A stretch of 64,000 nt of DNA from an uncultured Hyphomicrobiales bacterium (GCA_964472015.1 CAYYIP010000007.1:7219-71218); one strand, 5' to 3'. Positions 11,153 to 63,999 are shown, counted from the stretch's first letter. Program-made: numbers and translations. Notes: generated by a model from the letters alone, not told the origin.

Positions 11153-11228
11153 TTTATTTATTTATAAATTATGAATCGAGTTACAAAATATTATTTCTAT
11201 TGTTTAAATAAAATTATATAAGAATAGA

Positions 11229-11439: not shown

Positions 11440-11464
11440 TATATTAGATTATATGCATCCGTAG

Positions 11465-38889: not shown

Positions 38890-40467
38890 ATGTTAAAAAA
38901 ACAAGCAAAAGAAAAAGCAATAGAAGTAGCCTTGTGGGAAACAGCAAATAAATTGCGTGGAAGTGTTGAACCTTCGGAATATAAGCACGTGGTATTGGCG
39001 TTGATTTTTTTGAAGTTTGTGAACGATAAATTTGAGGAGCAACGACAAAAACTAATTAATTGTGGCAAAGAGAAATACATTGAAAACTCGGACTTTTACA
39101 ATAAGGACAAAGTCTTTTTTCTAAAAGAAGAGACCCGTTGGAAATATATTGTTAGTAAAGCTCGCCAAAACGATATTGCGTTGATAATTGATTCCGCTTT
39201 ACACACTATAGAAAAAGACAATAAAGTTCTGAAAGGTGCATTGCCTGATAACTATTTTTCACGTCTTGGACTTGATACCTCTAAATTAGCTGCTCTTATC
39301 AGCGAAATAGATAGCATATATATACTCAAGGACAAAGAGCAAGATGTTATTGGACGTATTTACGAGTATTTTCTGAGTAAGTTTGCCATTGCTGAAGGAA
39401 AAGGGAAAGGTGAGTTTTACACGCCCAAAAGCATTGTAAATTTAATTGCCGAGCTGATAGAGCCTTACAAAGGTTTTATTTATGATCCATGTTGCGGTTC
39501 GGGCGGAATGTTTGTGCAGTCTATCAAGTTTATTGAAGCACACCACGGCAATCAAAAAGAGGTTTCCATTTACGGACAGGAATATACGAACACAACGTAT
39601 AAATTGGCGAAAATGAATCTTGCCATTCGAGGCATTTCTGCTAATTTAGGCGAAAAAGCCGCTAACACTTTTAGCAACGATTTACATAAAGATTTAAAAG
39701 CCGATTTTATTATGGCAAATCCTCCTTTCAACCAAAAAGATTGGCGAGCAGAAAACGAACTTTTAGACGATCCTCGCTGGAAAGGTTACGAAGTACCACC
39801 CAAAAGCAACGCTAATTATGGTTGGATACTTCACATGGCATCTAAGCTTTCGGGAAATGGTGTAGCAGGATTTCTTTTAGCAAACGGAGCATCGAGCGGT
39901 GGCGGTGATGAGTATAAAATACGTAAACAGTTGATTGAAAATGATTTGGTTGAAGCTATCTTGATTTTACCACGAAATATGTTTTACACAACCGATATAA
40001 GCGTAACTCTTTGGATATTGAATAAAAACAAAAAAGAATACGTAAGGGCGTATGGCGATATACCTCAACGAAATTACCGAAATCGACAAAAAGAAATTCT
40101 TTTTATGGATTTGCGGGAAATGGGCGAGCCGTTTGAGAAAAAGTACATACAATTCTCTGAAAAAGATATTAGGAAAATAGCTGATAATTATCATAACTGG
40201 CAATGTACGGGTGAATTGAATTCGCCATATCAAGATATTCCAGAATTCTGCTATTCCGCAGGTATAGAAGAAATTAGAGAGAAAGATTATTCGCTTGTAC
40301 CGAGCAGATACATAGAATTTGTAAATCGTGATGAACAGATTGATTTTGACGAAAAAATGAAAACTTTACAGCAGGAAATTGGTAAATTATTACAAGAAGA
40401 AAAAAAATCGCGAGAAGAATTGTTAGCTGTTTTTAAAAATTTAGGTTATAAAATTGAGTTAAAATGA
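38890..40467 (+). CDS. hsdM: Type I restriction-modification system methyltransferase subunit
   Basis: HsdM N-terminal domain (LWETANKLRG); SAM motif DPCCGSGGMF; catalytic NPPF (IMANPPFNQKDW). G+C is clearly above the genome background. Confidence 0.9.
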   Translation: MLKKQAKEKAIEVALWETANKLRGSVEPSEYKHVVLALIFLKFVNDKFEEQRQKLINCGKEKYIENSDFYNKDKVFFLKEETRWKYIVSKARQNDIALIIDSALHTIEKDNKVLKGALPDNYFSRLGLDTSKLAALISEIDSIYILKDKEQDVIGRIYEYFLSKFAIAEGKGKGEFYTPKSIVNLIAELIEPYKGFIYDPCCGSGGMFVQSIKFIEAHHGNQKEVSIYGQEYTNTTYKLAKMNLAIRGISANLGEKAANTFSNDLHKDLKADFIMANPPFNQKDWRAENELLDDPRWKGYEVPPKSNANYGWILHMASKLSGNGVAGFLLANGASSGGGDEYKIRKQLIENDLVEAILILPRNMFYTTDISVTLWILNKNKKEYVRAYGDIPQRNYRNRQKEILFMDLREMGEPFEKKYIQFSEKDIRKIADNYHNWQCTGELNSPYQDIPEFCYSAGIEEIREKDYSLVPSRYIEFVNRDEQIDFDEKMKTLQQEIGKLLQEEKKSREELLAVFKNLGYKIELK

Positions 40468-42440
40468 ACGAAAAGCAAATAAATCCTTTTGAATTAGATG
40501 ATGAGTATGTTATATACTCACTCATAAACGAAGAATTTTTACCGGAAGAGTACCATGAACTTGAATATAAATCCGGTAAAGATGGATTTCCAAAAGAGAT
40601 TTGGAAAACATATTCAGCCTTTGCCAACACAAATTCTGGTATTATTATCATTGGTATAAAAGAGAAAAGAGGTGTTTTTCTAATTGAGGGATTGACAGAA
40701 GAACAAATTTCAAATTATAAAAAGCATTTTTGGGACAGCTGCAACAATCCGAATACCGTTAGTGTCAATCTTTTGAGTAACGAAGATATAAAAGTAATTG
40801 AGACAAATTCAAAAAAACTGTTAGTTATTCGAGTTCCTTTCGCTCATCGTACCAAAAGACCGGTTTTTCTTACACGAAATCCATTTGGAAACACGTACAA
40901 ACGCAACTACGAAGGCGACTACAGATGTACTGATGACGAAGTAAGAAGAATGTTAGCTGAAGGCGGCACAGAACTTAAAAGAGATAACTTGCTTTTAGAA
41001 AATTTCACGATAGACGATTTAGATCCTGTTAGTATTCGTCAGTTTCGTCAATTGTTTTCATCTACAAGACCGGGGCACCCTTGGCTTGCTTTAGAAGATA
41101 AAGACTTACTAAAGAAACTCGGAGCTTATCGCATTGACCGAAAAACTGGACAAGAAGGAATTACGCTTGCTGGGCTGTTAATGTTTGGCAAAGGAGACAG
41201 CATACGAGAACAAGATGCTTTACCTGATTACTTTCCTGATTTTAGAGAGCGTTTGTCAATAGATGAAAAAGTGCGATGGACAGATCGTATTTATCCCGAC
41301 GGAACTTGGGAAAGTAATTTACTTCAATTTTATTTGAAAGTATTGCCCAAATTATCATCTACATTACCTAAACCATTTCGCTTAGATAAAGATGAACGTG
41401 TTGATGAAACACCTGCTCATATTGCGTTGCGTGAAGCTTTTGTAAATACATTGGTGCATACTGATTATTTGTTAAGTGGTAACATTATCATTGAACTTGA
41501 TACCGAACAATTTGTATTTTCAAATCCCGGTACATTACTCGTTTCTTTGGAACAATATTATGCGGGAGGAGTGAGTGAGTGCCGTAATCCTGCATTACAA
41601 CAAATGTTTATGCTGATTGGTCGTGCTGAAAAAGCTGGTAGTGGAGTGGACAAAATTATGTCAGGCTGGCAAGATTCTCATTGGCGAAAGCCTTTTCTTG
41701 TGTTAGAAAACCGACCTGATAAAGTTAAACTCACTTTACCTATGTTTAGCGTGTTGCCTGAACAAGTACTAAACGAGTTAAATACTATTTATGGCGATGT
41801 GAGTCATTTTAGTTCCGACGAACTAACTGCACTTTCTTTCTGTCTGATAGAGGGTTCAATTTCCAACCACCGCTTGCAATATGTGTTAAATATGCACAGT
41901 TCAGACATTACGAAAATGCTTAAAAAATTGTGTGTGGGTGATTATTTAGAAGCTGAAAATTATGGTCGCTGGACTACTTATAAAATTAAACATAAGGTTG
42001 CAAGCTCAGGCGGAAAGGTTGACACCTCAGGCGAAAAGGTTGCAAGCTCCGATAGAAAGGTTGCAACCTCAGGCGAAAAGGTTGCAAGCTCTGGTGGAAA
42101 CCTTGCAAGCTCTGGTGGAAACCTTGCAAGCTCTGGTGGAAACCTTGCAAGCTCTGGTGGAAACCTTGCAAGCTCAGGCGGAAACCTTGCAAGCTTAACT
42201 GAACTTCCTAAAAGGATAAGTATAGAAAAAATGGAAGATATAATTATGCGAATTTGTAAGGATAATTACGTTAAAAAAGAAGACCTTGCAACATTATTGA
42301 ACCGTTCAGAAAATTATATAAGAAATGAAATTTTACCTAAAATGATAAAAGAGAAAAAAATAGAGAAAAAATATCCGTTTACGCTTAATCATCCTGAACA
42401 AGCTTATAAAACTACAGAGGAATATGCAGAAAAACTATAA
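40464..42440 (+). CDS. COG2865-type Schlafen-like ATP-binding protein / putative transcriptional regulator (AlbA_2 + HATPase_c_4-like + C-terminal HTH), inserted between hsdM and hsdS
   Basis: N-terminal ELEYKSG..IWKTYSAFANTNSGIIIIGIKEKRG matches AlbA_2. TLVHTDYLLSGNIIIELDTEQFVFSNPGTL matches HATPase_c_4. ATGA overlap with hsdM. An internal 7-aa repeat region sits ahead of the C-terminal domain. Confidence 0.75.
   Translation: MNEKQINPFELDDEYVIYSLINEEFLPEEYHELEYKSGKDGFPKEIWKTYSAFANTNSGIIIIGIKEKRGVFLIEGLTEEQISNYKKHFWDSCNNPNTVSVNLLSNEDIKVIETNSKKLLVIRVPFAHRTKRPVFLTRNPFGNTYKRNYEGDYRCTDDEVRRMLAEGGTELKRDNLLLENFTIDDLDPVSIRQFRQLFSSTRPGHPWLALEDKDLLKKLGAYRIDRKTGQEGITLAGLLMFGKGDSIREQDALPDYFPDFRERLSIDEKVRWTDRIYPDGTWESNLLQFYLKVLPKLSSTLPKPFRLDKDERVDETPAHIALREAFVNTLVHTDYLLSGNIIIELDTEQFVFSNPGTLLVSLEQYYAGGVSECRNPALQQMFMLIGRAEKAGSGVDKIMSGWQDSHWRKPFLVLENRPDKVKLTLPMFSVLPEQVLNELNTIYGDVSHFSSDELTALSFCLIEGSISNHRLQYVLNMHSSDITKMLKKLCVGDYLEAENYGRWTTYKIKHKVASSGGKVDTSGEKVASSDRKVATSGEKVASSGGNLASSGGNLASSGGNLASSGGNLASSGGNLASLTELPKRISIEKMEDIIMRICKDNYVKKEDLATLLNRSENYIRNEILPKMIKEKKIEKKYPFTLNHPEQAYKTTEEYAEKL
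41994..42196 (+). repeat. In-frame 21-bp tandem repeat (about 9.7 units), with 4 consecutive perfect copies of aaccttgcaagctctggtgga
   Basis: Units read directly from the sequence (aaggttgcaagctcaggcgga ... aaccttgcaagctctggtgga x4 ...). They encode KVASSGG / NLASSGG heptads. The repeat creates spurious ORFs in other frames and on the opposite strand. Confidence 0.9.
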
Positions 42441-43551
42441 GCGATTAGGCGATTATATACAAGAATTCAATGTCCGTAACACAGATTTAGCTATTACCAA
42501 TCTTTTAGGTGTGAGTATAGAAAAAACTTTTATACCATCCGTAGCAAATCTTAATGGCGTGGATTTATCTGTATATAAAATATTGAAAAAAGACCAGCTA
42601 GCTTGTAATTTAATGATCGTAGAGCGTGATAAAAAACTTCCTGTAGATTTGTATAGAGAAGAAAAACCAGCTATAGTTTCTTCTGCATATTATGTTTTTG
42701 AGCCAAAAAACAAAGAAGAATTATTACCTGAATATTTAATGATGTGGCTTTTTCGACCTGAAAGTGATAGGTATTTTGGTTTTATTAGTGGCGGAGATGT
42801 AAGAGGTGGAATTACTTGGGAGACATTTTGCAGTCTTCCAATTAAAGTCCCAAAAATTGAAAAACAACGAGAAATCGTAAAAGAATACAAAACAGTAGAG
42901 AGACGCATACAGATAAACGAAGAGCTCTGCAAAAAATTAGAAGAAACAGCACAAGCGCTATATAGAAAATATTTTGTAGAAGATATAGACCCAGAAAATT
43001 TACCGGAAGGGTGGAGATGGGGAAAGTTAGAGGAGGTTGCTAAGATTACAATGGGACAATCACCAGTGGGAGAAAGTTATAACACTGATGGAATTGGAGA
43101 AATATTTTATCAAGGTAGAAGCGATTTTGGAATGCGATTTCCCACAATTAGAATGTTTACAAATGAGCCTACCAAAATGGCTAAAAAAGATGATATTTTA
43201 TTAAGTGTTAGAGCACCTGTTGGGGACATAAATATTGCACCACACAATTGCTGTATTGGTAGAGGATTAGCAAGCATAAGAAACAAGAAAAAACAGAAGT
43301 CTTATATGTTTTATCTAACAAAAAATTTAGATACAATTTTTAATATAGCAGACGGAGCTGGAACAATCTTTGGAAGTATTAATAGAGATACACTTTTGAA
43401 TATTGACGTAATAATTCCTAATGAAGAAGTTATTCAATTATTTGAAAAAAAAGTTTCAACAATTGATAAGCTGTATGAATATAATGATATAGAAACGCAA
43501 AAGCTAAAAGAATTACTATCTTTGTTGTTGGCAAAGATGGGGAGAGAATAA
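42424..43551 (+). CDS. hsdS: Type I restriction-modification system specificity subunit
   Basis: Two target-recognition domains separated by, and ending in, the conserved HsdS helical regions (..EELCKKLEETAQALYRKYF.. and ..QKLKELLSLLLAKM). Overlaps the upstream gene by 17 nt. Confidence 0.8.
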   Translation: MQKNYKRLGDYIQEFNVRNTDLAITNLLGVSIEKTFIPSVANLNGVDLSVYKILKKDQLACNLMIVERDKKLPVDLYREEKPAIVSSAYYVFEPKNKEELLPEYLMMWLFRPESDRYFGFISGGDVRGGITWETFCSLPIKVPKIEKQREIVKEYKTVERRIQINEELCKKLEETAQALYRKYFVEDIDPENLPEGWRWGKLEEVAKITMGQSPVGESYNTDGIGEIFYQGRSDFGMRFPTIRMFTNEPTKMAKKDDILLSVRAPVGDINIAPHNCCIGRGLASIRNKKKQKSYMFYLTKNLDTIFNIADGAGTIFGSINRDTLLNIDVIIPNEEVIQLFEKKVSTIDKLYEYNDIETQKLKELLSLLLAKMGRE

Positions 43552-43557
43552 GAAGAT

Positions 43558-44076
43558 ATGAATTTTATTTTAAGATTTTTTTTTACAATTAGCGCTGTAT
43601 CTTTTTTTGTTGTTGTTTATTTAGTACAAAATAAGATAAATCCATTTGATGAGGTTCTTGGAAAATATGCGTGGTTAATTTATATAGTGTACGTACTTTT
43701 TCCATTTATACTGACTTGTATATCACTGCGAATTTGTAAATTATTAGCCAGAAACTCGATTAAAAAAATACAATCAATAGAACCATCGAATAATGATTTC
43801 CTTGCCACCTATCTTGCGTTCTTTTTTGTTGCATTAAGTATTAAAGGAACAATTACTTTTTGGATAGTATTTGGAATGACGGTTCTTTTTACTTTTGTTT
43901 CAAGAGTATCATACTTTAATCCGGTTCTTTTAGTATTTGGTTACAATTTTTATTATATAGTTACAGGGGAGAATGTAAAGATTATGTTAATTAGCAAACA
44001 AAAATTAAAAGCTCCGAATAATTTTGATCATAAAGATGTAGGACGCATCAATGATTATACATTTATAGATATTTAA
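43558..44076 (+). CDS. Hypothetical integral membrane protein (4-5 TM, 172 aa) inside the type I R-M locus
   Basis: Hydrophobic helices FFTISAVSFFVVVYLV, WLIYIVYVLFPFILTCISL, YLAFFFVALSI, FWIVFGMTVLFTFV and PVLLVFGYNFYYIV. No recognisable motif. Starts 7 nt after the hsdS stop. Confidence 0.6.
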   Translation: MNFILRFFFTISAVSFFVVVYLVQNKINPFDEVLGKYAWLIYIVYVLFPFILTCISLRICKLLARNSIKKIQSIEPSNNDFLATYLAFFFVALSIKGTITFWIVFGMTVLFTFVSRVSYFNPVLLVFGYNFYYIVTGENVKIMLISKQKLKAPNNFDHKDVGRINDYTFIDI

Positions 44077-44079
44077 AAT

Positions 44080-44889
44080 ATGGCAGAATTAATAGTAAAA
44101 TACAAATCTGAATACAAAAATGTATTGAAACAAGAAGACAATATTATTGAAAATATTGATCTAACTAATGTAGAACAAATAGATTTTACAACAAGCTATA
44201 AGCTTGAAGATAATGAATGGTTTAAAATTACTGATTTTAGCAATCAAGACTATGTTGTTGAAATATGTAATGAAAATTTCAGTACTGCAAGTCTCGTGCA
44301 AATAGTTAACAAGGAGTATGAAGATATTAAAGAAATAGTTATTTTGCAGAACGAGCAGATGCATTTCCAAAGGGTTACTCCTTCTTATTATGTAAATAAG
44401 AAAACTTTTTTAGACTATTCAGGAAGTCCCAAAGTAGTAGAACACAGAAAACAGATCGAGATAAAAAAAGAATCTGATGCTGTATATTTGTTAGAAACTG
44501 ACACATTGTTATTTAAAGATATATCTAAAATAAAACCTATTTTTAAAGGAATAGAGATGTTGCATCGAGAAGCAACACAAGAGGAAGTTAACACATTTAT
44601 GGAATATGATTTCATTTCAACGTTAAATTTTGACTCTAAACGTGTAGGTGTTCAAAATCGAAAAAGAATAGCTGATATTGGGGTAAAATATGCTAATCTT
44701 TCAAGCGAGAAACAAAAAGGACTAATAACTTATGCAAAAGAGAAATCAGGAATTGATATAGAGGATGGCAAATTTCTAATTAGAAATGATAACGATTTGA
44801 AAAACTTGCTTTACGCAATGGATCAACGTTATTATTATGCTGATATATATGAAGAAAATAGAATTGCTAACTCCATTCGTATTGTGTAA
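44080..44889 (+). CDS. Hypothetical soluble protein (269 aa), translationally coupled to the membrane protein
   Basis: Starts 4 nt after the upstream stop. No catalytic motif that I can recognise. Charged, Lys/Glu-rich. Confidence 0.55.
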   Translation: MAELIVKYKSEYKNVLKQEDNIIENIDLTNVEQIDFTTSYKLEDNEWFKITDFSNQDYVVEICNENFSTASLVQIVNKEYEDIKEIVILQNEQMHFQRVTPSYYVNKKTFLDYSGSPKVVEHRKQIEIKKESDAVYLLETDTLLFKDISKIKPIFKGIEMLHREATQEEVNTFMEYDFISTLNFDSKRVGVQNRKRIADIGVKYANLSSEKQKGLITYAKEKSGIDIEDGKFLIRNDNDLKNLLYAMDQRYYYADIYEENRIANSIRIV

Positions 44890-44960
44890 CGGGTTATTTA
44901 GCAAGTTCATATTATAAAGTAAAATACGGATTTATGAATTATTTTTAAATTAATATTTAA

Positions 44961-45926
44961 ATGATCAATTTTCATGCACATAATCGCAAAAGTATTCGTC
45001 TAAAAGGATACGATTATTCGCAAGAAGGATTGTATTTTATAACGATTTGTTGTCAAGATAAAATTTGTAGGTTTGGACATATTGAAAACGACGAAATGAT
45101 ATGTAACCAATATGGAATTGTGGCATATAATGAATGGATAAAAACGTCACAAATACGTTCCAATATTACGTTGCACGAATTTGTTGTAATGCCCAATCAT
45201 ATCCACGGTATTATTGAAATAAATCGCGATGCGGAATTATATTCCCAAAACCGTGGTTGCGAATTGCGTTCGCCAAATTGTAGTGGCGAATTGTATTCGC
45301 CCGTTCCAAAGGGCGTATTCGATACGCCCCAACAGCCCGATTTCGATACGTCCGTTCGTGGTTGCGAATTTTATTCGCCAAATTGTAGTGGCGAATTGTA
45401 TTCGCCCATTCCAAAGGGGGTATTCAATACGCCCCAACAGCCCGATTTTGATTTGTCCGTTCGTGGTTGCGAATTGCGTTCGCAAAATTGTGGTTGCGAA
45501 TTGCATTCGCCAAATTGTAGTGGCGAATTGTATTCGCCCATTCCAAAGGGGGTATCCGATACGCCCCAACAGCCCGATTTCGATACGTCCGTTCGTGGTT
45601 GCGAATTGCGTTCGCAAAATTGTAGTGGCGAATTGTATTCGCCCGTTCCAAAGGGGGTATTCGATACGCCCCAACAGATTGATTTCGATACGTCCCGATT
45701 GCGATCACCGTCGCAAACGGTTGGTGCCATCGTTCGCGGATACAAATCGGCGGTTACAAAACAATTGAATGCGTTGGGAATGACCGAAAAATTATGGCAA
45801 CGCAATTATTACGAACATATTATACGCAATGAACAATCATATATACATATTTCTGAATATATTCGCAACAATCCCATACAATGGATAAACGATAGATTTT
45901 ATGATTATGAAATTTACAGAAAATGA
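44961..45926 (+). mobile_element. IS200-like REP-associated tyrosine transposase (RAYT) whose ORF carries an in-frame insertion of a REP array
   Basis: N-terminal part with HuH motif VVMPNHIHGII. C-terminal part with the RAYT Tyr motif LWQRNYYEHIIRNEQSY. Together these make about 165 aa, the normal RAYT size. They are separated by about 150 aa encoded by palindromic repeats. Confidence 0.7.
45252..45700. repeat. Four tandem about 105-bp units (unit 3 carries a 27-bp internal duplication), each holding three REP-like hairpins (gcgaa-ttgcg-ttcgc; ggcgaa-ttgta-ttcgcc; gggcgtat-tcg-atacgccc)
   Basis: Direct reading: cgtggttgcgaattgcgttcgccaaattgtagtggcgaattgtattcgcccgttccaaagggcgtattcgatacgccccaacagcccgatttcgatacgtccgtt repeated 4 times with point differences. 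Open in several frames on both strands. Confidence 0.9.
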
Positions 45927-48900
45927 ATTAGAAAAGGCATTTATCAAATTATTAGAGCAAGAGGGCTATACGCATAGTGCAGGTGCTTCGGTATCACGTT
46001 CCTCAATGAACGAGGTGCTGATAAAAGAAGATTTGCGTAGGTTTTTGCATTCGCACTATAAGGCAGATGAGCTGACGGGAAACGAGGTAAATTTCATTAT
46101 CCAGCAACTTAACTCGCTTCCTGCCAGCGATTTATATGAAAGTAATAAACGGTTTATGCAGATGCTTTCAGACGGTTTTATTCTGAAAAGAGATGACCAC
46201 AAGCAGAAAGATCTTTACATTGAGCTTATCAACTATAGATTTTTGAAAAAAAATCTACATCTTAAAACAGAAAAATATACTTCTATAGTTGCGGAAAATA
46301 ATGACGACAATAACATCTACAGATTTGTAACTCAATTGGAAATCGTAGGGAATGAAAAACGTATTCCCGATGGAATTGTTTATGTAAACGGTTTACCATT
46401 AGTGGTTTTTGAATTTAAGACTCCCGTTAAAGAAGAGGTTACTATTTATGATGCTTACAAGCAACTTACGGTGCGTTATCGTCGCGATATTCCCGAACTT
46501 TTCAAGTACAACGCTTTTTGTGTTATCAGTGACGGCGTAAACAGCAAAGCAGGTTCATTGTTTGCCTCTTACGAGTTTTATTACGCATGGAGAAGAATAG
46601 CAAGTTTAGCAAAAGATGTTGACGGAATTGATAGTATGTTTACCCTAATTAAAGGAGTTTTCGACAAAAACCGTTTTCGAGACATACTTCGTAATTTTAT
46701 CTTTTTCCCCGATACAGAAAAAAATGAAAGTAAAATCGTTTGTCGTTATCCTCAATATTACGCTGCCCGTGCTTTGTTCGAAAATATCAAGCAAGCTCAA
46801 AAACCTCACGGCAACGGAAAAGGCGGAACCTATTTCGGAGCAACTGGCAGTGGCAAGAGCTTCACGATGCTTTACCTTACACGTTTGCTGATGAAAAGCG
46901 AACATTTTGCTAGTCCAACTATCGTACTTATTACAGATCGTACCGATTTAGACGATCAGCTCTCTGCACAATTTGTAAATGCCAAGAGATTTATAAGTGA
47001 TGATACAGTGCAAAGCGTTGAAAATCGTGCTGATTTACGCGAGAAGCTACAAGGCAGACAGAGCGGAGGTGTTTTTCTTACTACTATACAGAAATTTACT
47101 GAAGATACGGAATTGCTTACCGAACGCAATAATGTGATTTGTATTTCAGATGAAGCACATCGCACACAAACAAATCTCGATCAAAAAATCCGTATTACCG
47201 AACAAGGAGTTACTAAATCATTTGGCTTTGCTAAATATCTGCACGATTCTTTGCCTAATGCTACTTACGTTGGTTTTACTGGAACACCTATAGATGCTAC
47301 ATTAGATGTTTTCGGTCCGGTGGTAGATTCCTACACAATGACCGAATCAGTTAAAGATGAAATTACTGTGCGTATCGTTTACGAAGGCAGAGCTGCTAAA
47401 GTAGCTTTAGATAACAGTAAATTAGAGGAGATTGAACGTTACTACGAAGCAGCTGCGGAAGCTGGAGCTAACGAATATCAAATTGAGCAAAGCAAAAAAG
47501 AGACTGCTAAAATGAATGCTATTCTTGGCGACCCGAAACGTTTACAAAGTGTTGCCGAAGATTTTGTAGAACATTACGAAAAACGTGTTTCGGAAAAAGC
47601 AACGCTGAAAGGTAAAGCTATGTTTGTTTGTAGCAACAGAGAAATAGCTTATGATCTGTTTAAGCGTATTATTACACTTCGTCCCGAATGGAATGAAATA
47701 CGTGCAGCAGAAGAAGGAGCAGAACTTTCCGATAAGGATAAAAGGGAATTAAAACCTATAGAGCGAATAAAAATGGTAATGACACGGTCAAAAGACGACG
47801 AAAAAGAACTTTGGGATTTGTTAGGGACAAAGGAATATAGAAAAGAGCTTGACAGACAATTCAAAAATGAAAAATCTAACTTTAAAATAGCTATCGTGGT
47901 TGATATGTGGCTCACAGGATTCGACGTGCCTTTTTTGGATACAATTTATATAGACAAACCAATACAACAACATAATCTAATACAAACTATTTCGCGAGTA
48001 AATCGTCGAGTGGAAGGAAAAGATAAAGGGCTTGTGGTTGATTATATCGGCATAAAGAACAAGATGAATTTGGCACTTGCTCAATACGATAAAATTGAAG
48101 GTGATAACTTTGAAGATATTTCTCAATCACTTGTGATAATGCGAGAGCATTTGGATTCGTTGAAACATTTGATGCATACGTTCGACGATACAAAGTATTT
48201 TAAAGGTTCAAATTTAGAACAACTAAATACACTTAATTTGGCTGCTGAATTTGTACAACAAACCAAAGAAACTGAAAGCCGATTTATGGGACTAACAAAA
48301 CGTTTGAAAGCTGCTTATGATATTTGTGTGGGAAGCGAACAAATAACACAGAAAGATCGAGATTATGTACATTTTTATATAGCTATTCGTTCCATTGTTT
48401 TTAAACTGACTAAAGGCGATATTCCCGATGTGGTACAAATGAATAACCGAGTACGTCAGATGATTGAAGAAGCTTTACAAAGTGACGGTGTTGAGGAAAT
48501 ATTAAAAATTGGCGATGAAACTAAAAGTGAACAAGATTTGTTTGATGAAAAGTATTTGGCAAAAATCAATAAGATAAAGCTACCTAATACGAAAATTAAA
48601 CTCTTGCAGAAGCTCTTAGCAAAAGCTATCGGGCAACTGCGAAAAATTAATCGCATAAAAGGAATTGACTTTAGCCATCGAATGCAAAAGTTAGTGGATC
48701 AATACAACGACCGTTCAGTAAACGATATTTTGCGAAGCGAGGTATATGAAGAGATGGCTGAAAAACTTACCGCTATGATTTGGGATGTACACGAAGAATT
48801 TTATGCCGGCGAAAAGTTGGGAATTGATTTTGAAGAAAAAGCCTTTTACGATATTCTAAAAGAATTGTGTGTGAAATACGATTTTAAATATCCCGACGAC

Positions 48901-49110
48901 AAAATGATAAAGTTGGCTAAAAAAGTCAAAGAGCTAGTTGATTTTATAGCCAGTTATCCCGATTGGAATAAGCAAGAGAATATAAAATCAGAGTTGAAAG
49001 CTGGATTAATTGTGTTGCTTGATGAATACAATTATCCGCCTGTTGAACGAGATGAAGTTTATGTAGAAATTTTTGAACAAGCGGAGAATTTTAAGAAAAA
49101 TAGAGAATAA
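45901..49110 (+). CDS. hsdR: Type I restriction-modification system endonuclease subunit
   Basis: HsdR N-terminal domain (MKFTENELEKAFIKLLEQEGY); SF2 helicase motifs including Walker A GATGSGKS and DEAH (ICISDEAHRTQ); 1069 aa. Overlaps the RAYT 3' end by 26 nt. Confidence 0.9.
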   Translation: MIMKFTENELEKAFIKLLEQEGYTHSAGASVSRSSMNEVLIKEDLRRFLHSHYKADELTGNEVNFIIQQLNSLPASDLYESNKRFMQMLSDGFILKRDDHKQKDLYIELINYRFLKKNLHLKTEKYTSIVAENNDDNNIYRFVTQLEIVGNEKRIPDGIVYVNGLPLVVFEFKTPVKEEVTIYDAYKQLTVRYRRDIPELFKYNAFCVISDGVNSKAGSLFASYEFYYAWRRIASLAKDVDGIDSMFTLIKGVFDKNRFRDILRNFIFFPDTEKNESKIVCRYPQYYAARALFENIKQAQKPHGNGKGGTYFGATGSGKSFTMLYLTRLLMKSEHFASPTIVLITDRTDLDDQLSAQFVNAKRFISDDTVQSVENRADLREKLQGRQSGGVFLTTIQKFTEDTELLTERNNVICISDEAHRTQTNLDQKIRITEQGVTKSFGFAKYLHDSLPNATYVGFTGTPIDATLDVFGPVVDSYTMTESVKDEITVRIVYEGRAAKVALDNSKLEEIERYYEAAAEAGANEYQIEQSKKETAKMNAILGDPKRLQSVAEDFVEHYEKRVSEKATLKGKAMFVCSNREIAYDLFKRIITLRPEWNEIRAAEEGAELSDKDKRELKPIERIKMVMTRSKDDEKELWDLLGTKEYRKELDRQFKNEKSNFKIAIVVDMWLTGFDVPFLDTIYIDKPIQQHNLIQTISRVNRRVEGKDKGLVVDYIGIKNKMNLALAQYDKIEGDNFEDISQSLVIMREHLDSLKHLMHTFDDTKYFKGSNLEQLNTLNLAAEFVQQTKETESRFMGLTKRLKAAYDICVGSEQITQKDRDYVHFYIAIRSIVFKLTKGDIPDVVQMNNRVRQMIEEALQSDGVEEILKIGDETKSEQDLFDEKYLAKINKIKLPNTKIKLLQKLLAKAIGQLRKINRIKGIDFSHRMQKLVDQYNDRSVNDILRSEVYEEMAEKLTAMIWDVHEEFYAGEKLGIDFEEKAFYDILKELCVKYDFKYPDDKMIKLAKKVKELVDFIASYPDWNKQENIKSELKAGLIVLLDEYNYPPVERDEVYVEIFEQAENFKKNRE

Positions 49111-55919: not shown

Positions 55920-56912
55920 ATGATGAATATGAATTTAAATAGGGTAAATAATATATTTAGTAACATAAAAGGTCAAAAAGTAGCAGTTGTGGGCGATGTT
56001 ATGTTAGATAGATACTTTTGGGGGAATGTTTCTAGAGTATCGCCAGAAGCTCCCGTTCCAGTTGTTGATATTGAAAGTGAAACTTTTCATCTCGGTGGCG
56101 CTGCTAATGTTGCAAAAAACTTGTGTTCATTAAAAATAACACCTATTTTATGTGGATTACTTGGGAACGATGAGCCTGCTGAAATTTTTATTAATCAATG
56201 TAATAAATGTGGTATACTTGCTGATGGACTTTTTGTAGAGAACGAGAGAGTTACGACTGTAAAAACTCGTGTTATTGGTAATAATCAACAAATAGTTAGA
56301 CTGGATAGAGAAGTTAGATGTATAATATCAAAAGAAGGTGAAAACTTTATTTTGAATAAAGTAAAAAGTATTGAAGGCCTAGCAGGAATTATTTTTGAAG
56401 ATTATGATAAAGGGACTATTAGTGATACACTAATTAAAAATATTACTAATTTTGCTAATAAAAATAATATACCAGTTTTTGTTGATCCTAAGTTTGATAA
56501 TTTTAATAAGTATAAAAATGTTACTTTATTTAAACCTAATAAAAAGGAAACAATGCAGGGGTTAGGAATTCAATTAAATTCTTATGAAGATATAAAGTAT
56601 GCGGGGAATAAATTATTAGAAAAACTGAAAGCTGAATATATATTAATTACTTTAGGTTCGGCGGGAATGGTACTTTTTGAAAAAAATGGTGATATTACTA
56701 AGATACCTACTGTTGCAAAAAAAATTGCTGATGTTTCAGGGGCCGGTGATACTGCTATTGCTACTTTTGCAACAATGTTAATATCAGGTGCAACTTGTAA
56801 AGAAGCAGCTATATTAGCAAATTTTGCTTCGGGATATGTTTGTGAAAAACCGGGTATTGTTGCTATAAATCAAGAACAACTATTGAAAGCAGCATCTATA
56901 ATGAAGATATAA
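55920..56912 (+). CDS. D-glycero-beta-D-manno-heptose-7-phosphate kinase (RfaE domain I; PfkB-family sugar kinase)
   Basis: VAVVGDVMLDRY, HLGGAANVA and C-terminal GAGDT.. blocks; 330 aa, kinase domain only. Confidence 0.7.
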   Translation: MMNMNLNRVNNIFSNIKGQKVAVVGDVMLDRYFWGNVSRVSPEAPVPVVDIESETFHLGGAANVAKNLCSLKITPILCGLLGNDEPAEIFINQCNKCGILADGLFVENERVTTVKTRVIGNNQQIVRLDREVRCIISKEGENFILNKVKSIEGLAGIIFEDYDKGTISDTLIKNITNFANKNNIPVFVDPKFDNFNKYKNVTLFKPNKKETMQGLGIQLNSYEDIKYAGNKLLEKLKAEYILITLGSAGMVLFEKNGDITKIPTVAKKIADVSGAGDTAIATFATMLISGATCKEAAILANFASGYVCEKPGIVAINQEQLLKAASIMKI

Positions 56913-57021
56913 TTTTTTTATAATTTTTATTTTTTTTTTATAAAAATTTGGAATTAATGAAAAAAGGTCGTAAATTTGTGTTTATTAATTATTTATATTA
57001 ATATAATATAAACTTGAAAAT

Positions 57022-57093
57022 GGTCCTATAGACTAACGGTTAGGTCACCAGCCTTTCACGCTGGCAGTAGGGGTTCAAATCCCCTTAGGATCA
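57022..57093 (+). tRNA. tRNA-Glu, anticodon TTC
   Basis: ggtccta-ta-gact-aacggtta-ggtc-a-ccagc-cTTTCac-gctgg-cagt-agggg-ttcaaat-cccct-taggatc-a; 72 nt; resembles E. coli tRNA-Glu. Confidence 0.8.
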
Positions 57094-58089
57094 CAAAAAT
57101 ATTAAAAAATGCTTCCAATACTCTTTTTATTTTCATATCTAAAAGGTAAATCACTTTAATTTCTCAATAATATAAATATAATAAGTATATAAAATAATAT
57201 AGTATATAAATATATATATATCAAAATATAAATATGTTCTTTTGAAGTATTATATTTTATTATTAATTTTTTTTATTATTATTTTTCATTATTTTAAATT
57301 AAAATAATGTTGTTATAAACTCATATTTATATGATTTTTTATTATGATTTATTATAGTATTAATTAATTATATTATTGTTATTAGAAATGTCAGTATGTA
57401 GTTAAATAAGTTATTAATAAAGTAAATTTTTGACTACAAATTTAATAATTATATATGAATAAAGTAATAATAAATAAAAATTAACAAAAGTTGGTTTTTT
57501 GTTGTCTTTATTATATTGCGTTTATTATATTTAAATTGTATTAAGGTATATTAAAATTATAGTAATACTGTAAAATTATTCATTGTTTTATTTTTTTGGC
57601 AAATTTTTTGATAGTAATAATAACTTGTATAGAAATAATAATAACTTGAATTATATTAATTTGTAATGCAATATTTATGATAAATTAAATTAAGTTTTGT
57701 TAATTATATCTTTATATCATAAAAAAATATAATCTAAGTATGTATGTTATCAAAATATAATATTAAAATAGTAACAAAAGATACACATATTTTTTATTAT
57801 AGTATATCAAATTATAAATATTACTTATTTTTACATTCTTTTTACAAAAATTTATTTTGTAATATCAAAAAAAATGTATATTTTGCAATTTAAATTTATA
57901 TATTTATAATTTATTATTTTTTATTTTTTATTTTGTAGTAGCAAATACTCTATTATAGTATGGAGTTTTTTATTTAAATAAAAAAATAAAAAAAGTAAAT
58001 TATTATATATAATTTTAAGTTTAATATAAAATGTTAAGTTATTGAAAAGTAAATTAAAATTTTTAAATAAAATAAATTATAGGTTTTTT

Positions 58090-61000
58090 ATGAATACTCA
58101 ATTAAAAACACCAAAGTTCTTTAAACTATTGTATTTTGTATGTTTAGTAATATTTGGTTTTTTAGGGAAGCCATTATTAGCGCAAAATGACAATGGTATA
58201 ATGGACCCTAATTATCAAATAACTGTAAGTAATGAAACTTATACAGAGCTTACTTCATATACACAATTGTATGGTACAGCAGATGATGGATATAGTAGAA
58301 TATATGTTCCATTTGCATTTAAATGGGATACAACAGTTTATCCAGCAAACTTTCTTTTAGCTGTTTCGCCTAATGGATGGGTTGGGTTTCCAGGTTATTA
58401 TTTTTATGATAGTTATGAATCTGGTTCTATTTCTAGTAATAATCCATTAACATATTCAAGTACTCCAACAACTGGGTTTGTTAAAACTATACACTTTTTA
58501 ACAGGTGATAATTATGTTAGAACCAGTTTAAGATATGCTACTTTAGGGTCAGCCCCTAATCGCAGATTTGTTGTTCAATGGCAAGGTTTTTCTCCAATAT
58601 CTTATTCTAGTAATCTCTCTAATTTTCAACTAATTTTATATGAGAATGGTGGTGCAGATGCAGGGAAAATGAGAATGCATTGGGGGACTTGTAATCCTTA
58701 TACTCAAAATAATTCTAATGTTTGTTGTTTAATTGGTGGTAGAATGGAGAGATATATTAACATACAACCTCAAGCTTCAGGGTTAACATTCTATAAAGGT
58801 AATTCAACAAATACTTATGTTACTAATGCTACAATTGGATATTTATTTTCAAATGGAAAATGTATAGATTATGAATTGGATTTGTTACCAACGTTGGTTG
58901 CAGTTTATCCTACTAATGGTAGTACTTTTATTGGTAATACAGTAATGGATCCTTCACAACGACCGGGTGTAACTGTAAAAAGAAGCAATGCGTCGATACC
59001 TAAGCCAATAATGAAATATGAGATATTTAATGCAGATGGTGATATTGTTTATACAACGAATAATATTGCTATTGATGTAGTAGGTACACAACGTTATAAT
59101 ATTACATCAGCAACTGGTTCAAGAGCTAATTCTGATGGTACTTTTAACTTAACAGGCGCTCCGGGTGGATGGTATACTGTTAGAGTAACATTTGATAATA
59201 CAGAAACAGTAGAAACAAGGACTTCATCATTTTTTGTAGATAATAAATGTGCAACGTATATAAGAAGTTATCCGGCTCCAGGAACACTACTAACAAGTGG
59301 AGTTGCAGTGCCAGTAGAGGAGAGACCTTCGGTAGTTATTACAAAAGAATGGCCAGTACCAATAGCACCAAATCCATTAGTAAAATATAAAATTCTTAAT
59401 GATAGAGGTGAAGCAGTATATACTGCTTTATCAAATTCAGGGTTGTCAGAATTTGAAGTAAATGTTTTTGGTGTAAATCAAAGATATTATTTTTCTAATG
59501 CTGTGGGTCCATTCGCTGGTATAAGTGGTAATTTGGATTTAACAAATGCACCTCCGGGTACTTATACAATAGTAGTGGAATTTGATGACAAAGTAAATCC
59601 AAAAGTAGAGATTCCAACAACACAGTTTTATATAATTAGAACTTATGATCTTATTTTGAAAGATATTATAGTTCCAAGAGGCTGGTTATCTACTGATACT
59701 ATATCAGCAGATAAATATAGATATTCATATGGAGCACAATTCCCTGTAGAATTTGAAGTATATAATGGTGGTGGTGTTCAAATAGATTCTTTTAAAGTAG
59801 ATGTAGATATTTATAATTCAAGTAATACATTAGTAACTGAATTTACTAATGCATTTTCTTTAAGAAATAATCCATTATTAAAAACAGAATCACGTATTTA
59901 TACAACTGCAACTCAAATAAATTCTAGTACATTAGGAGTTGGTTTATATAAAATAGTATGTACAGTTACACCTTTGGTACCGTCACAAGATGAAGATTTA
60001 GCTAATAATGTGTTCCCACGTGCTAATAGTACTAGATATTTTGAAATAGCTCAGCCTATAGATGTTGCTATAAATAAAACTATGGCAGTGCCTGGTAGTA
60101 ATACATACAGATATCCATTCTATCCGACTATAGAAATAACAAATCTAGGAACTGAAGATTTAAGTGGTTCTATGGCAAATATAGAAATAAAGCATAATGG
60201 TAAAGTGGTTTACACTGGGGTGGTAATGTTACAAAATATTACTTTCAATACTCCATCAAAAATAAAATTCCCAGAAATCTTTATGCCTGAAGAAATTGGT
60301 AAATATGAAGTAACGTTAACATTAGATTTACACGGTTTACCAAAAGTTGAAACATTTGTTTTTGTAGTTGGCGATGGTCTTAAAGGTACTTATACAATAG
60401 GAGCAGCAGGTACATATAAAACATTTAATGAAGCTGTTGAAATGTTGTATTTAAGAGGTGTAGGTGGCAATGTTGTATTTGAATTATTAGATGAAGAATA
60501 TGTATTAGGACATAATTCTGCATTACCAGAATTCCGTTCAAAAATAGTAGGTGTTGGCCCTAATGCTACCATTACATTTAGGCCAAGTCAACTTAGAATG
60601 CTATCTTTTACTCCAATAAGAATGGTGTTAGAATCAACAGATGGTTATGGTATTAGATTTGGTCAAGCATTAGAAACAGGTGATTATAAGGTACCAGCAG
60701 TTAACATTATTACAGATTTAGATCTAAGACGTGAATTTGCTACCTCAGAAGGTTATATTACTTTTGATGGCGGTCCAAGAAAAAATATAAAATTTGTTAT
60801 GTATCAACCTGATAATATAAAATTTAGCGCTCCTATTTATATGGGTGAGGGATCAAAAAATATTACAATAACAAATTGTCGTATAACTGGTAATAATTAT
60901 AATAGTAGTGAATTACCAACAGTACAATATACAAATGAAGCTTTAGGATTTGAATTTGATAATGATATTTTTGTTAATAAATTTGATTTTTATGATACAT

Positions 61001-63999
61001 TAACTTATAGTACAGGTATACTAATAAGAAATAAACCATATAAAAATAATTTAATAGGTATAGCTGATTATAAAGTTGATACAGTTGCTACTTCTAATAT
61101 AACAATAGATGGAAATATAATAGAAGGATTTGGTTATGGTATAGTATCTATTGGTATGGGACCTATATATCAATTAAACAGTGGGAATGTTGAAATTATA
61201 TATAACCGTAATAATAAGTTTACTAATAACTATATTACAAAAATTGCAAAAGCAGGTATATTCTTAGGTTTTGAAGATGGAGCTGTTATTAGTGGTAACC
61301 GTATAGATTCAATAGGTGGATTAAAAAAACTAAATGAAGAAATATATGGTATTAAACTTGGTGGTAATTATCGTTATGATAATTGCTTCGGATATCATAA
61401 TATTAATGTAACAGTTAGCGAAAATGAAATAAGTAATATACAATCTAATTTATTTTCTTATGGTATAAAAATTGAACAACATAAATTAAATATAGGTTAT
61501 AATAGTATAGGTTATTCATTCCCATCAGAAGATAATGATGTATTTAAAGTATATAATAATGTAATTAATAAATTAACAACAACAAAAAATGCTTCTAACT
61601 GTAAAGTTGGTATTGCTGTAAGTACAACAAGAAAAGTAGTAGATGATATAGAACTTGATTATGAAGGTCCTATTTATAATAATGGTAATTTAGAAGTATA
61701 TGCTTTATATCCTTTTGAAGAAAGTTTTAAGGTAACTAATTCTTTAATAAATAATAATACAATTAGTATATCAGAAGGAGAATACGATTTAAATAATAAT
61801 GGTAGAATGATTGGTATCTTAGTTCAAGATGTTGATTACTTTGAAATATTAAATAATGCTATTAGTATTGAAGGTGTTGCTAATTCTTTGAGAGAAAATT
61901 CTGCTGTTGCATTACAAGGATTAAATCCAAAGAAATTACGTTCAAGATTAAATCATAATGCTTATTACGTAACTCCTCTGGGATTAGATTTTAATTCAAG
62001 TTATGTTAGATTATATGAAATGGATGAAGTAGGTCGTTTCTTAGAAGATGGTGGTTATCCTAATGAATATATGAAATTAACACAATGGATAGGTTGGACA
62101 GGTGAAGATGTTAATTCAATATCTGGTTTTGATTTTAAACGCGATATGCAAGAACAAGATGTTTTATTAAATGGAATAAAACTTTATAATGTATGGCGTA
62201 TGAAAGAAAAGAAACATATTACAAGAAATTCTCAACTAAATAACAGAGCTGAATTAATTACTTATATACAAAAAGACTTAACAGGTGCTTCAAGAATTAA
62301 TTTAGATCAAAATCCTGATATAGGAGCTTTTGAATTTGATAGCGAAGTATATTTAACTGATATGGAAGTTAAAATGATTACTGCACCTGCTGCTTATTGT
62401 GATTATAGAGGACGTTTTGCAGATGCTGAATATGTAATGGTAGGTGGTTCTGCAGTAGATGTAAAAGCACTTATAAGAAATAATGGTTATGTTGTTGTTC
62501 CTAATCATCCTATAAGATGTGAAATTTATAAAAATCCTAATTATACAGTTCCGGTTAAGGATACAACAGTTAGGATAACGCTTGCACCAGGTGAAGAACG
62601 TGAAGTTGTATTTTTCTCGTCAATGGAAGAAAGTAACTTAAGATTTGAGCCCGAACCTTTCAATGGTGAAATGCCTGATAAAGAATGGTTTATGACAATG
62701 CGTACAAATGTAACGCCTTTATATTACATAAAAGTTACTGCTGATCCTAATCACGTAACTGATGAATATCGTCCAAACGATGCTATGAGTAAATATGTAA
62801 GATTTTATGTGCCTTCTAATTCAATAGATAAATTGTATTTGATTATTTCGGCTGAAAATACAACAGCTGATTTATCAGAAAATAATTTACCTAATTTAAA
62901 TGCAGATATTATTGCTGGTAAATTAAATTATGATACACTTTTAGCTGCTTTCAATAATTTGAAATATTTTGTTGCAACTACTGAACAGAAAGCAAGACAT
63001 ATTGATATTATGGATAGAAATGGATGGGAACAACGTTCTATTGATTATACAGTACAACGTTATAATAAAGGAAAAGGATTATATGAACCTGTATATAATA
63101 ATTTATTCTGGGCAGATGGTGATGATAAAGAATTAACTTATTGGGAAAAACAATCTTTAATAGATTTTGAAAATGCAGGTGTTTATAACTATAAGAAAAA
63201 TATAGTAATAGCTTCACAAGAAATTTCTAGAGAAAATTTAGCAGGTGTAAATGCATTTAATACAGAATTGAATTTTGATATTTTACGTTCAAAATCTAAG
63301 GGTGATGGTTTCCTTGGTGATGAATTTGTATTAGCTGATCCTCCTGCTTACAAAATCAAGGGATTTTATCAAGCTCATAATATTGTATTAGATATAAAAC
63401 CTACAAAATATGTTCCTGATAATGGACCAGAGCCAGGTATATTTGCTAAGATAGATACTATATTAGGACAAAATTATGTTGGATATTATTATTACAATCC
63501 TAATGATATAGATGCAGATAAAGATATTGAAAATAAAATGAGTTTAATTTCTAATAAAAAATTAAATAATAATAATATCTATGGTGCATTTGATTGGAGA
63601 CATTTAGGAAATGCAACTGCTTTTGTTGCTGGGGTGCTAGATGATATTGGTGATGATTTAGTTGTGCCAGTTGAATTAGTAAGCTTTAATGCTAATAATA
63701 TAGGTAGAAAAGTTATGTTGGATTGGCGTACTGCTTCTGAAATTAATACTAATTGTTTTGAAATAGAAAGAGCTAATGTATTAAATAATGGTGCAGGATA
63801 TGGTATATTCAATAATATAACAACAATTAAAGCAGCTGGCAATAGCAATACTACATTAGATTATAACTATACTGATAGAAATGTTATATACGGTGAAAGT
63901 TATGCTTATAGATTGAAAGTAACTGATATTGATGGTACTTATTCTTATTCAGGAATAAGAGAAGTTACTATTGAAAATGCAAACGGTCTAAGGATAAAC
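58090..63999 (+). CDS. Giant secreted protein (over 1970 aa, 3'-partial) with beta-helix-like and Ig-like repeat regions. It probably ends in a T9SS C-terminal sorting domain, but that would lie beyond the window and was not seen.
   Basis: ATG at 58090. Signal peptide MNTQLKTPKFFKLLYFVCLVIFGFLGKPLLAQ. I translated frame 1 by eye and found no stop through to the window end. The supplied ORF track lists no + strand ORF after 56912, consistent with an ORF lacking an in-window stop. NxxxGxxxxG-type parallel beta-helix-like segments (ITIDGNIIEGFGYGIVSIG, AVISGNRIDSIGG). Confidence 0.7.
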   Translation, partial: MNTQLKTPKFFKLLYFVCLVIFGFLGKPLLAQNDNGIMDPNYQITVSNETYTELTSYTQLYGTADDGYSRIYVPFAFKWDTTVYPANFLLAVSPNGWVGFPGYYFYDSYESGSISSNNPLTYSSTPTTGFVKTIHFLTGDNYVRTSLRYATLGSAPNRRFVVQWQGFSPISYSSNLSNFQLILYENGGADAGKMRMHWGTCNPYTQNNSNVCCLIGGRMERYINIQPQASGLTFYKGNSTNTYVTNATIGYLFSNGKCIDYELDLLPTLVAVYPTNGSTFIGNTVMDPSQRPGVTVKRSNASIPKPIMKYEIFNADGDIVYTTNNIAIDVVGTQRYNITSATGSRANSDGTFNLTGAPGGWYTVRVTFDNTETVETRTSSFFVDNKCATYIRSYPAPGTLLTSGVAVPVEERPSVVITKEWPVPIAPNPLVKYKILNDRGEAVYTALSNSGLSEFEVNVFGVNQRYYFSNAVGPFAGISGNLDLTNAPPGTYTIVVEFDDKVNPKVEIPTTQFYIIRTYDLILKDIIVPRGWLSTDTISADKYRYSYGAQFPVEFEVYNGGGVQIDSFKVDVDIYNSSNTLVTEFTNAFSLRNNPLLKTESRIYTTATQINSSTLGVGLYKIVCTVTPLVPSQDEDLANNVFPRANSTRYFEIAQPIDVAINKTMAVPGSNTYRYPFYPTIEITNLGTEDLSGSMANIEIKHNGKVVYTGVVMLQNITFNTPSKIKFPEIFMPEEIGKYEVTLTLDLHGLPKVETFVFVVGDGLKGTYTIGAAGTYKTFNEAVEMLYLRGVGGNVVFELLDEEYVLGHNSALPEFRSKIVGVGPNATITFRPSQLRMLSFTPIRMVLESTDGYGIRFGQALETGDYKVPAVNIITDLDLRREFATSEGYITFDGGPRKNIKFVMYQPDNIKFSAPIYMGEGSKNITITNCRITGNNYNSSELPTVQYTNEALGFEFDNDIFVNKFDFYDTLTYSTGILIRNKPYKNNLIGIADYKVDTVATSNITIDGNIIEGFGYGIVSIGMGPIYQLNSGNVEIIYNRNNKFTNNYITKIAKAGIFLGFEDGAVISGNRIDSIGGLKKLNEEIYGIKLGGNYRYDNCFGYHNINVTVSENEISNIQSNLFSYGIKIEQHKLNIGYNSIGYSFPSEDNDVFKVYNNVINKLTTTKNASNCKVGIAVSTTRKVVDDIELDYEGPIYNNGNLEVYALYPFEESFKVTNSLINNNTISISEGEYDLNNNGRMIGILVQDVDYFEILNNAISIEGVANSLRENSAVALQGLNPKKLRSRLNHNAYYVTPLGLDFNSSYVRLYEMDEVGRFLEDGGYPNEYMKLTQWIGWTGEDVNSISGFDFKRDMQEQDVLLNGIKLYNVWRMKEKKHITRNSQLNNRAELITYIQKDLTGASRINLDQNPDIGAFEFDSEVYLTDMEVKMITAPAAYCDYRGRFADAEYVMVGGSAVDVKALIRNNGYVVVPNHPIRCEIYKNPNYTVPVKDTTVRITLAPGEEREVVFFSSMEESNLRFEPEPFNGEMPDKEWFMTMRTNVTPLYYIKVTADPNHVTDEYRPNDAMSKYVRFYVPSNSIDKLYLIISAENTTADLSENNLPNLNADIIAGKLNYDTLLAAFNNLKYFVATTEQKARHIDIMDRNGWEQRSIDYTVQRYNKGKGLYEPVYNNLFWADGDDKELTYWEKQSLIDFENAGVYNYKKNIVIASQEISRENLAGVNAFNTELNFDILRSKSKGDGFLGDEFVLADPPAYKIKGFYQAHNIVLDIKPTKYVPDNGPEPGIFAKIDTILGQNYVGYYYYNPNDIDADKDIENKMSLISNKKLNNNNIYGAFDWRHLGNATAFVAGVLDDIGDDLVVPVELVSFNANNIGRKVMLDWRTASEINTNCFEIERANVLNNGAGYGIFNNITTIKAAGNSNTTLDYNYTDRNVIYGESYAYRLKVTDIDGTYSYSGIREVTIENANGLRIN

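Follow-up and report, generated by a model that had tools for sequence, protein, structure and literature searches.

A long A+T-rich gap between tRNA-Glu and a giant type IX secretion cargo gene: probable spacer, with a candidate promoter about 200 nt before the start codon

The DNA considered here (64,000 nucleotides from an uncultured Hyphomicrobiales bacterium, GCA_964472015.1, CAYYIP010000007.1:7219-71218; this whole stretch is referred to as the window) ends inside a giant gene that is separated from the tRNA-Glu gene before it by about 1 kb of extremely A+T-rich sequence. The original prediction described this sequence as a non-coding leader, of a kind that often holds complex regulation or phase-variable tracts, and the gene product as a secreted surface cargo protein, probably of a type IX secretion system (T9SS). 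The giant protein is, as far as sequence allows this to be confirmed, a T9SS type A cargo, and it is a member of a large, unnamed T9SS family of about 1,850-2,050 amino acids (aa). The explanation favoured for the gap, in which we have good though incomplete confidence, is that it is unusually long but compositionally normal intergenic DNA lying 3' of tRNA-Glu rather than a special leader, and that the promoter of the giant gene stands about 200 nt before the ATG, so that most of what was called the leader is probably spacer upstream of the giant gene's own promoter. The features of the locus on which this account depends are as follows.

56947-56978, + strand: tRNA-Glu promoter of the Bacteroidota type, TTTG-N20-TAAATTTG, 44 nt before the tRNA
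57022-57094, + strand: tRNA-Glu (anticodon UUC), found by ARAGORN and matched by Rfam RF00005 at 67.5 bits
57095-58089: A+T-rich intergenic gap, 995 bp, 88.1% A+T
57095-57855: A+T-rich spacer, probably outside the mRNA of the giant gene; no conservation or Rfam match, and no open reading frame (ORF), repeat or homopolymer beyond chance
57856-57886, + strand: candidate promoter of the giant gene, TTTG (57856-57859), N19, TATTTTGC (57879-57886), with a predicted transcription start site (TSS) near 57891
57891-58089, + strand: predicted 5' untranslated region (UTR), about 199 nt
about 57890-58018, + strand: long A-U hairpin in the predicted UTR; at its tip, a terminator-like stem, ACUCUAU/AUGGAGU (57947-57966), with U6 after it (57967-57972)
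58090-63999, + strand: codes for aa 1-1970 of a T9SS type A cargo protein of 2,052 aa and leaves the window end; known from the open frame and the copy in a second assembly

The gap contains no real ORF, as had been claimed: the longest frames that touch it are of 49 aa (57744-57893, + strand) and 32 aa (- strand, overlapping the tRNA), and each of the six frames holds 23-39 stop codons. The 49-aa frame was rejected as a gene, since it is of low complexity, overlaps the promoter block and is not conserved. The A+T content agrees with the 85-90% originally stated, though it is typical of the intergenic DNA of this window, which is 72.8% A+T as a whole and comes from a genome whose G+C content is given as 27%. 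Across the 18 other intergenic gaps that are 150 bp or longer, the A+T content runs from 70 to 95%, and in ten of these gaps it equals or exceeds that of the leader; the present gap is exceptional by length only, the next longest in the window being 640 bp. Homopolymeric runs of up to 8 nt are present, as had been remarked, with a T8 tract at 57267-57274 and an A8 tract at 57867-57874 inside the spacer of the candidate promoter, but they are no longer than the longest runs in dinucleotide-preserving shuffles (8.7 +/- 1.5 nt).

The idea of complex regulation or phase-variable tracts in the leader was not borne out: there is no Rfam match, no excess of tracts and no conserved structure or peptide, and the leader is base-for-base identical in the second assembly, from another sample (L001; two assemblies compared). 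A cmscan search against Rfam 15 over 56800-58300 at E<=1 returned the tRNA alone, plus two sub-threshold matches overlapping it, and a Tandem Repeats Finder run on the leader gave low-scoring A+T-rich rows and no tandem arrays. Inverted repeats in the leader are of low complexity and 70-87% complementary, with no sharp pair flanking the promoter, and the phasing of A-tracts, a measure of curvature, has no 10-11 bp periodicity. The only resemblance of the leader to the rest of the window is a low-complexity similarity to other A+T-rich intergenic DNA; one such region, 32474-32537, holds an exact consensus promoter, and the candidate promoter block resembles it.

The comparison of the locus with its orthologs separates what is conserved from what is not. 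All three ortholog lineages have one and the same arrangement of genes (M24 peptidase, SdaA, RfaE-type kinase, tRNA-Glu, gap, giant gene, tRNA_SAD protein), with the tRNA-Glu gene in the same position, and a genomic island at the tRNA was rejected on the grounds that gene order is kept on both sides. The gap itself measures 995 bp in the window and 585 and 448 bp in the other two lineages (L002 and L003), with A+T contents of 88.1, 83.2 and 81.7%. In a global MAFFT alignment the three gaps do not align, and no peptide conserved between the leaders comes up in tblastx. For local alignment, +1/-1 scoring is invalid at this composition, the scores being equal to those of shuffles, and +1/-2 scoring was used instead; with it, neither the window nor L002 scores above the shuffle level when compared with L003, while the window and L002 share one block of about 60 nt (window 57846-57907) that is equalled by one of 500 shuffles. 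The gaps upstream of other family members range from 198 to 932 bp, and the family is thus not marked by a long gap. The longest of these (932 bp, 72% A+T, without a called gene) precedes the first of two giant paralogs in tandem on L012 (3001-9000 and 9417-12000; 1,999 aa and 1,971 aa, 416 bp apart). Elsewhere in the window, the gene for a 1,460-aa cargo protein (12673-17055) has an upstream gap of just 197 bp, so that long gaps do not track large cargo genes generally. Further long A+T-rich spacers lie around two tRNA-Arg genes (ACG at 10986-11060 and UCG at 11455-11529), in a 1.26-kb stretch without long ORFs (10575-11834) that the tRNA genes split into gaps of 411, 394 and 305 bp.

The detection of a promoter in DNA of this composition depends on the choice of promoter model. 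The sigma-A promoter of Bacteroidota has TTTG at -33 and TAnnTTTG at -7, and TAnnTTGY is the -7 box variant SM5 of Flavobacterium psychrophilum (PMC9723704). The tRNA-Glu and tRNA-Gln genes of the window are preceded by exact promoters of the form TTTG-N20-TAnnTTTG, and the promoter type of this organism was therefore set as that of Bacteroidota; the motif scan found the tRNA-Glu promoter as an exact match to TTTG-N17-22-TAnnTTTG, and a similar block can be seen by eye before the orthologous tRNA in L005 and L006. A scan with the sigma-70 consensus, which is the wrong promoter model for this group, gave 21 sites against 20.4 in shuffles and was discarded. The layout TTTG-N18-21-TAnnTTGY is found a single time in the leader of the window and a single time in that of L002 (there as TTTG-N20-TATTTTGT), 204 and 213 nt before the ATG, so that both blocks match the arrangement of the Bacteroidota sigma-A and SM5 promoters; the chance of at least one such motif per leader, estimated from shuffles, is 0.068 for the window and 0.048 for L002. 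In five of the eight family loci examined, a motif of this class stands 96-256 nt upstream of the gene.

The promoter of the giant gene is most likely the TTTG-N19-TATTTTGC element at 57856-57886, as judged by these motif matches, and the gap is likely to consist of about 760 bp of non-conserved spacer, the promoter, and a 5' UTR of about 200 nt that begins at the predicted TSS, with 57095-57855 probably untranscribed. A TSS near the ATG with an untranscribed leader, the outcome against which the original prediction had been set, would on the predicted promoter position hold for about four-fifths of the gap, the remainder being the predicted UTR. The median 5' UTR reported for Bacteroidota is 24-32 nt (PMC9723704), far shorter than the roughly 200 nt implied here by a predicted site. 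The RNA of 57890-58110 folds at -37.5 kcal/mol (z = -3.18), with one of 200 shuffles as stable, and the tip hairpin alone has z = -2.1. The equivalent stretches of L002 and L003 contain no excess structure (z = -0.8), and the hairpin of the predicted UTR therefore appears to be lineage-specific.

The giant gene is open in frame 1 for 1,970 codons, from the ATG at 58090 to 63999, with no in-frame stop overlooked, and the end that had been sought downstream is supplied by the full-length copy in the second assembly (P0001 on L001), which ends at 2,052 aa with a type A sorting domain; the window lacks the last 82 residues. The two assemblies differ at five nucleotides over the 11 kb that they share. 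All five (58409, 58417, 59903, 60411 and 60753) are inside the giant ORF and none is in the other roughly 5 kb; they correspond to D107G, E110Q, T605I and two synonymous changes, D107G and E110Q being three codons apart in the NIDO-like domain described below. The sorting domain, which begins at aa 1974 (window position 64009, just beyond the window end), is matched over aa 1974-2047 of P0001 by Por_Secre_tail PF18962 at 41.8 bits against a cut-off of 27, and TIGR04183 scores 24.7 bits against a cut-off of 23, so that the original assignment to the T9SS is upheld by two models. The parts of the protein that lie within the window may be set out as follows.

58090-58185, + strand: signal peptide, aa 1-32, MNTQLKTPKFFKLLYFVCLVIFGFLGKPLLAQ, with a basic N-terminus, a hydrophobic core and an ...LLAQ end
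58237-58689, + strand: N-terminal NIDO-like domain, aa about 50-200, linked indirectly through P0005 and P0006
58888-60369, + strand: all-beta region, aa about 267-760, read as two Ig/CarboxypepD_reg-like and two CARDB-like sandwiches, with inferred boundaries
60373-62349, + strand: right-handed beta-helix-like core, aa about 762-1420, read from repeats, an Asn ladder and family matches
62803-63663, + strand: family-specific conserved domain of about 285 aa, aa 1572-1858, with invariant polar residues
63664-63984, + strand: module before the sorting domain, aa 1859-1965, holding the LVSFNANN...LDWRTASEINTNCFEIER motif

The signal peptide proposed earlier is predicted again here from the hydropathy profile and a reading of the residues, which point to an N-terminal Sec signal: the core spans about aa 10-26, the Kyte-Doolittle means of the 11-residue windows starting at aa 10-16 are 2.3-2.8, and the ...AQ motif after the hydrophobic stretch is retained in the family consensus. 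In general, T9SS cargo crosses the inner membrane by Sec and is then conveyed through the T9SS translocon, after which PorU removes the sorting domain and the protein is linked to anionic lipopolysaccharide (LPS) or released (PMC10202324). The giant protein would accordingly enter the periplasm through Sec by means of its signal peptide and be handed to the T9SS by its C-terminal type A domain; if the process resembles that of the model organisms, the PorV shuttle, the SprA/Sov translocon and the PorU sortase would remove that domain, and the protein would then be attached to anionic LPS or released. This route is proposed wholly from knowledge of the T9SS, while the sorting domain itself is the result of a tool, and the probable fate of the protein is display on, or release from, the cell surface. 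The presence of a T9SS in this organism is argued indirectly, because there are other type A cargo genes in the window. At least two are above the Pfam cut-off, at 8070-9881 (+) and 12673-17055 (-), and a third type A sorting domain, below that cut-off, is encoded at 33590-36727 (+). The product of 12673-17055, the 1,460-aa protein mentioned above, also has BNR/Ycf48-like and choice-of-anchor D-like parts.

The known type A cargo proteins, such as RgpB and Hbp35 of P. gingivalis and RemA of F. johnsoniae, share with the giant protein a Sec signal peptide and a C-terminal type A domain of about 75 aa with an immunoglobulin (Ig)-like fold, and the giant protein is likewise a large multidomain surface protein; its passenger, known here from sequence, has no detectable relation to gingipains, to RemA or to any solved structure. 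SprB of F. johnsoniae and other giant gliding adhesins are also very large, repeat-rich surface proteins exported by the T9SS, but SprB has a type B sorting domain (PF13585) and an adjoining cognate SprF (PMC10202324), whereas the domain found here is of type A. No sprF/porP-like gene adjoins the giant gene in the Pfam and NCBIfam scans or in the locus gene tables examined, and no sequence similarity of the giant protein to SprB was seen.

The passenger must be described largely through its relatives. The segment at aa about 50-200 is similar to segments of two unrelated proteins, P0005 and P0006 (BLASTP E = 5e-10 and 5e-9), which are themselves borderline matches to Pfam NIDO (25.9 and 26.5 bits against a cut-off of 25); the giant protein has no match to NIDO (PF06119) at E<=1. 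In the all-beta region a low-confidence model contains strands alone, CarboxypepD_reg matches weakly and below its cut-off at aa 340-376 (E = 3.3e-4), and CARDB and MG2 are found in 4/25 and 3/25 family members at positions that were not mapped onto the giant protein. The beta-helix-like repeats noticed originally (NITITNCRI, NIIEGFGYGIVS and NNYITKIAKAGIFLG in the translation) stand in so far as relatives match the models NF041518 (6/25) and PF13229 (3/25), typical repeats fill aa about 900-1300, and N1047, N1070, N1112, N1157, N1223, N1256 and N1290 are invariant in 60 sequences, a pattern that fits an Asn ladder; they do not extend to a direct match. Unlike the proteins of those two models, the giant protein is itself below significance, and no catalytic family (pectate lyase, glycoside hydrolase) was matched. 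BLASTP finds no internal repeats in the protein.

The region of aa 1572-1858 is specific to the family. In the 60-sequence alignment N1613, D1639, R1643, W1646, S1709, W1836, R1837, H1838 and D1851 are invariant, to which a 28-sequence sub-alignment of the domain adds E1647, D1676 and K1702; 27 of the 28 members have no Pfam match here at E<=1, and there is no PDB sequence match at E<=10. The LVSFNANN module that had been noticed near the window end was located at aa 1863-1894, and it appears to belong to a module preceding the sorting domain that is common to many T9SS proteins: aa 1859-2033, sorting domain included, are 30% identical (E = 6e-20) to the C-terminal end of P0004, a T9SS protein that is unrelated in its other parts. 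Within the family F1866, A1868, W1879, E1884 and E1893 are invariant. Profile searches of the PDB with the family alignments gave weak FlgD-like matches on the sorting domain alone. Taken as a whole, the architecture suggests the binding, and possibly the cutting, of a polymeric substrate at the cell surface, most likely a glycan.

The extent of the family depends strongly on the search method. A word-indexed protein search returned just three full-length relatives, among them P0002 (65% identity, from a goat-omasum metagenome-assembled genome labelled 'Bacteroidetes bacterium') and P0003 (58% identity, from biogas-reactor assemblies, one labelled 'Ignavibacteria bacterium'), and a word-indexed search with a profile of the aa 1572-1858 domain returned 2 fragments only. 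The large family is seen only by exhaustive HMMER search, in which the C-terminal 1,050 residues recover 221 representatives of clusters counted at 50% identity, at E<=1e-30. Most representatives are 1,800-2,050 aa long and align over the whole of this query, and in the 60-sequence full-length alignment most members are 28-31% identical to the giant protein. The names obtained by cluster look-up are 'hypothetical protein' only. Pfam scans of 25 members found Por_Secre_tail in 24, GEVED in 6, CARDB in 4, MG2 in 3 and Beta_helix in 3, and NCBIfam scans of the same number found TIGR04183 in 23 and choice-of-anchor Q, a beta-helix domain, in 6.

Several observations pull the other way and must be set against this account of protein and gap. 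As regards the protein, no T9SS machinery gene was found by Pfam and NCBIfam scans of most but not all of the window ORFs; outside the sorting domain, searches of Pfam, NCBIfam and PDB sequences gave nothing significant on the giant protein; and AlphaFold models of its two halves, built on 3-sequence alignments, have mean predicted local distance difference test (pLDDT) scores of 35.6 and 30.9 and are unusable. As regards the promoter, the strict TAnnTTTG consensus has no match near the ATG, the proposed -7 box is of the TAnnTTGY form, 1 nt shorter than the main consensus, and the third ortholog, L003, is without the full motif. Finally, the 100 nt that follow tRNA-Glu in the window lineage hold no terminator-like hairpin, and none was found in the scan of 56800-58300.

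This last point bears on the proposal that the whole of the roughly 1 kb is transcribed, the giant gene being co-transcribed with tRNA-Glu from the promoter at 56947-56978 and left with a 5' leader of about 1 kb when the transcript is cut at the tRNA. Because no terminator is recognisable after the tRNA in the window lineage, read-through from its promoter keeps some probability; that promoter is a perfect consensus, and the tRNA is next to the giant gene in all three lineages. Co-transcription is not a conserved feature, however, because L002 (5806-5843) and L003 (about 9634-9668) have strong terminator hairpins with U-runs directly 3' of the same tRNA (z = -4.7 and -3.2), a separate promoter-like block is conserved nearer the gene, and the stretch between tRNA and block is not conserved, so that we consider the proposal improbable. 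A smaller probability still is given to an unrecognised cis-regulatory or small RNA, of which the hairpin at 57890-58018, acting as a transcription attenuator or thermosensor, would be an example. The fold of the predicted UTR exceeds that of shuffles, its tip stem is followed by U6, and both the length of the UTR relative to the reported medians and the motif distances in five of eight loci could be read in this sense; but the pairing of T-rich with A-rich arms is easy by chance at 88% A+T, the equivalents in L002 and L003 are unstructured, no Rfam family matches, and in three lineages of unalignable sequence covariation cannot be assessed.

Two further proposals would make the gap something other than ordinary spacer, and both are highly improbable. 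Large surface proteins belong to a class that is often phase-varied, and the T8 and A8 tracts, the latter within the candidate promoter, could in principle allow slipped-strand switching of the giant protein on and off, as could an invertible promoter; against this are the agreement of the longest run with the shuffle expectation, the identity of the leader in an assembly that has five single-nucleotide differences elsewhere, the lack of any defined inverted pair around the promoter (the repeats being low-complexity and at most 87% complementary), and the lack of an adjoining recombinase, the neighbours being the kinase, SdaA, M24 peptidase and tRNA_SAD protein genes. The extra length of the gap, which is 410-550 bp longer than the orthologous gaps, could also be the remains of a decayed gene or mobile element, tRNA genes being common integration sites. 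For such an insertion, tblastx yields no conserved peptide, and neither an integrase nor direct repeats of the tRNA 3' end are present; gene order on both sides is kept in all lineages, and the sole similarity to the rest of the window is to low-complexity A+T-rich intergenic sequence.

If, as is favoured here, most of the gap is spacer, then the placement of promoters predicted from the -33 and -7 motifs of Bacteroidota offers a means of telling spacer from leader in A+T-rich genomes. In Bacteroidota and related groups, large T9SS cargo proteins without an assigned function are common, and at 27% G+C a long A+T-rich gap is nothing unusual; the remaining interest lies in the family, most of whose length is without Pfam coverage, and in its 285-aa domain. 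It is a tentative idea, which we would rate as unlikely but worth keeping in view, that the family is built around a new functional domain at aa 1572-1858 and that the long 5' UTR is a conserved regulatory feature. Were the domain to catalyse a reaction or bind a ligand, the family would amount to a new class of T9SS enzyme or receptor at the cell surface, and the promoters predicted 96-256 nt upstream could mean an unusually long conserved regulatory 5' UTR. With a good structure model, hundreds of giant surface proteins of rumen and digester bacteria could be given a function.

Some other features of the window may be recorded. A G8 homopolymer at 24628-24635, the longest G or C run in the window, lies inside an ORF (23661-25142, +) for a Polysacc_synt protein (Wzx-like flippase), and in a genome of 27% G+C it is a stronger candidate for phase variation by slipped strands than any part of the leader. 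The interval 38890-49110 is a type I restriction-modification island with HsdM, a Schlafen/AlbA_2 + HATPase_c_4 protein, HsdS, a Y1-transposase-like ORF and HsdR, and its G+C content of 32-40%, against the window mean of 27%, suggests that it was acquired horizontally. Near the window start, where the called ORF begins, 47-1165 encodes the C-terminal part of an MmeI-type restriction/methylase protein (the end of the methyltransferase, the target-recognition domain and the C-terminal domain), and it is followed at 1621-2037 by a KilA-N domain gene.

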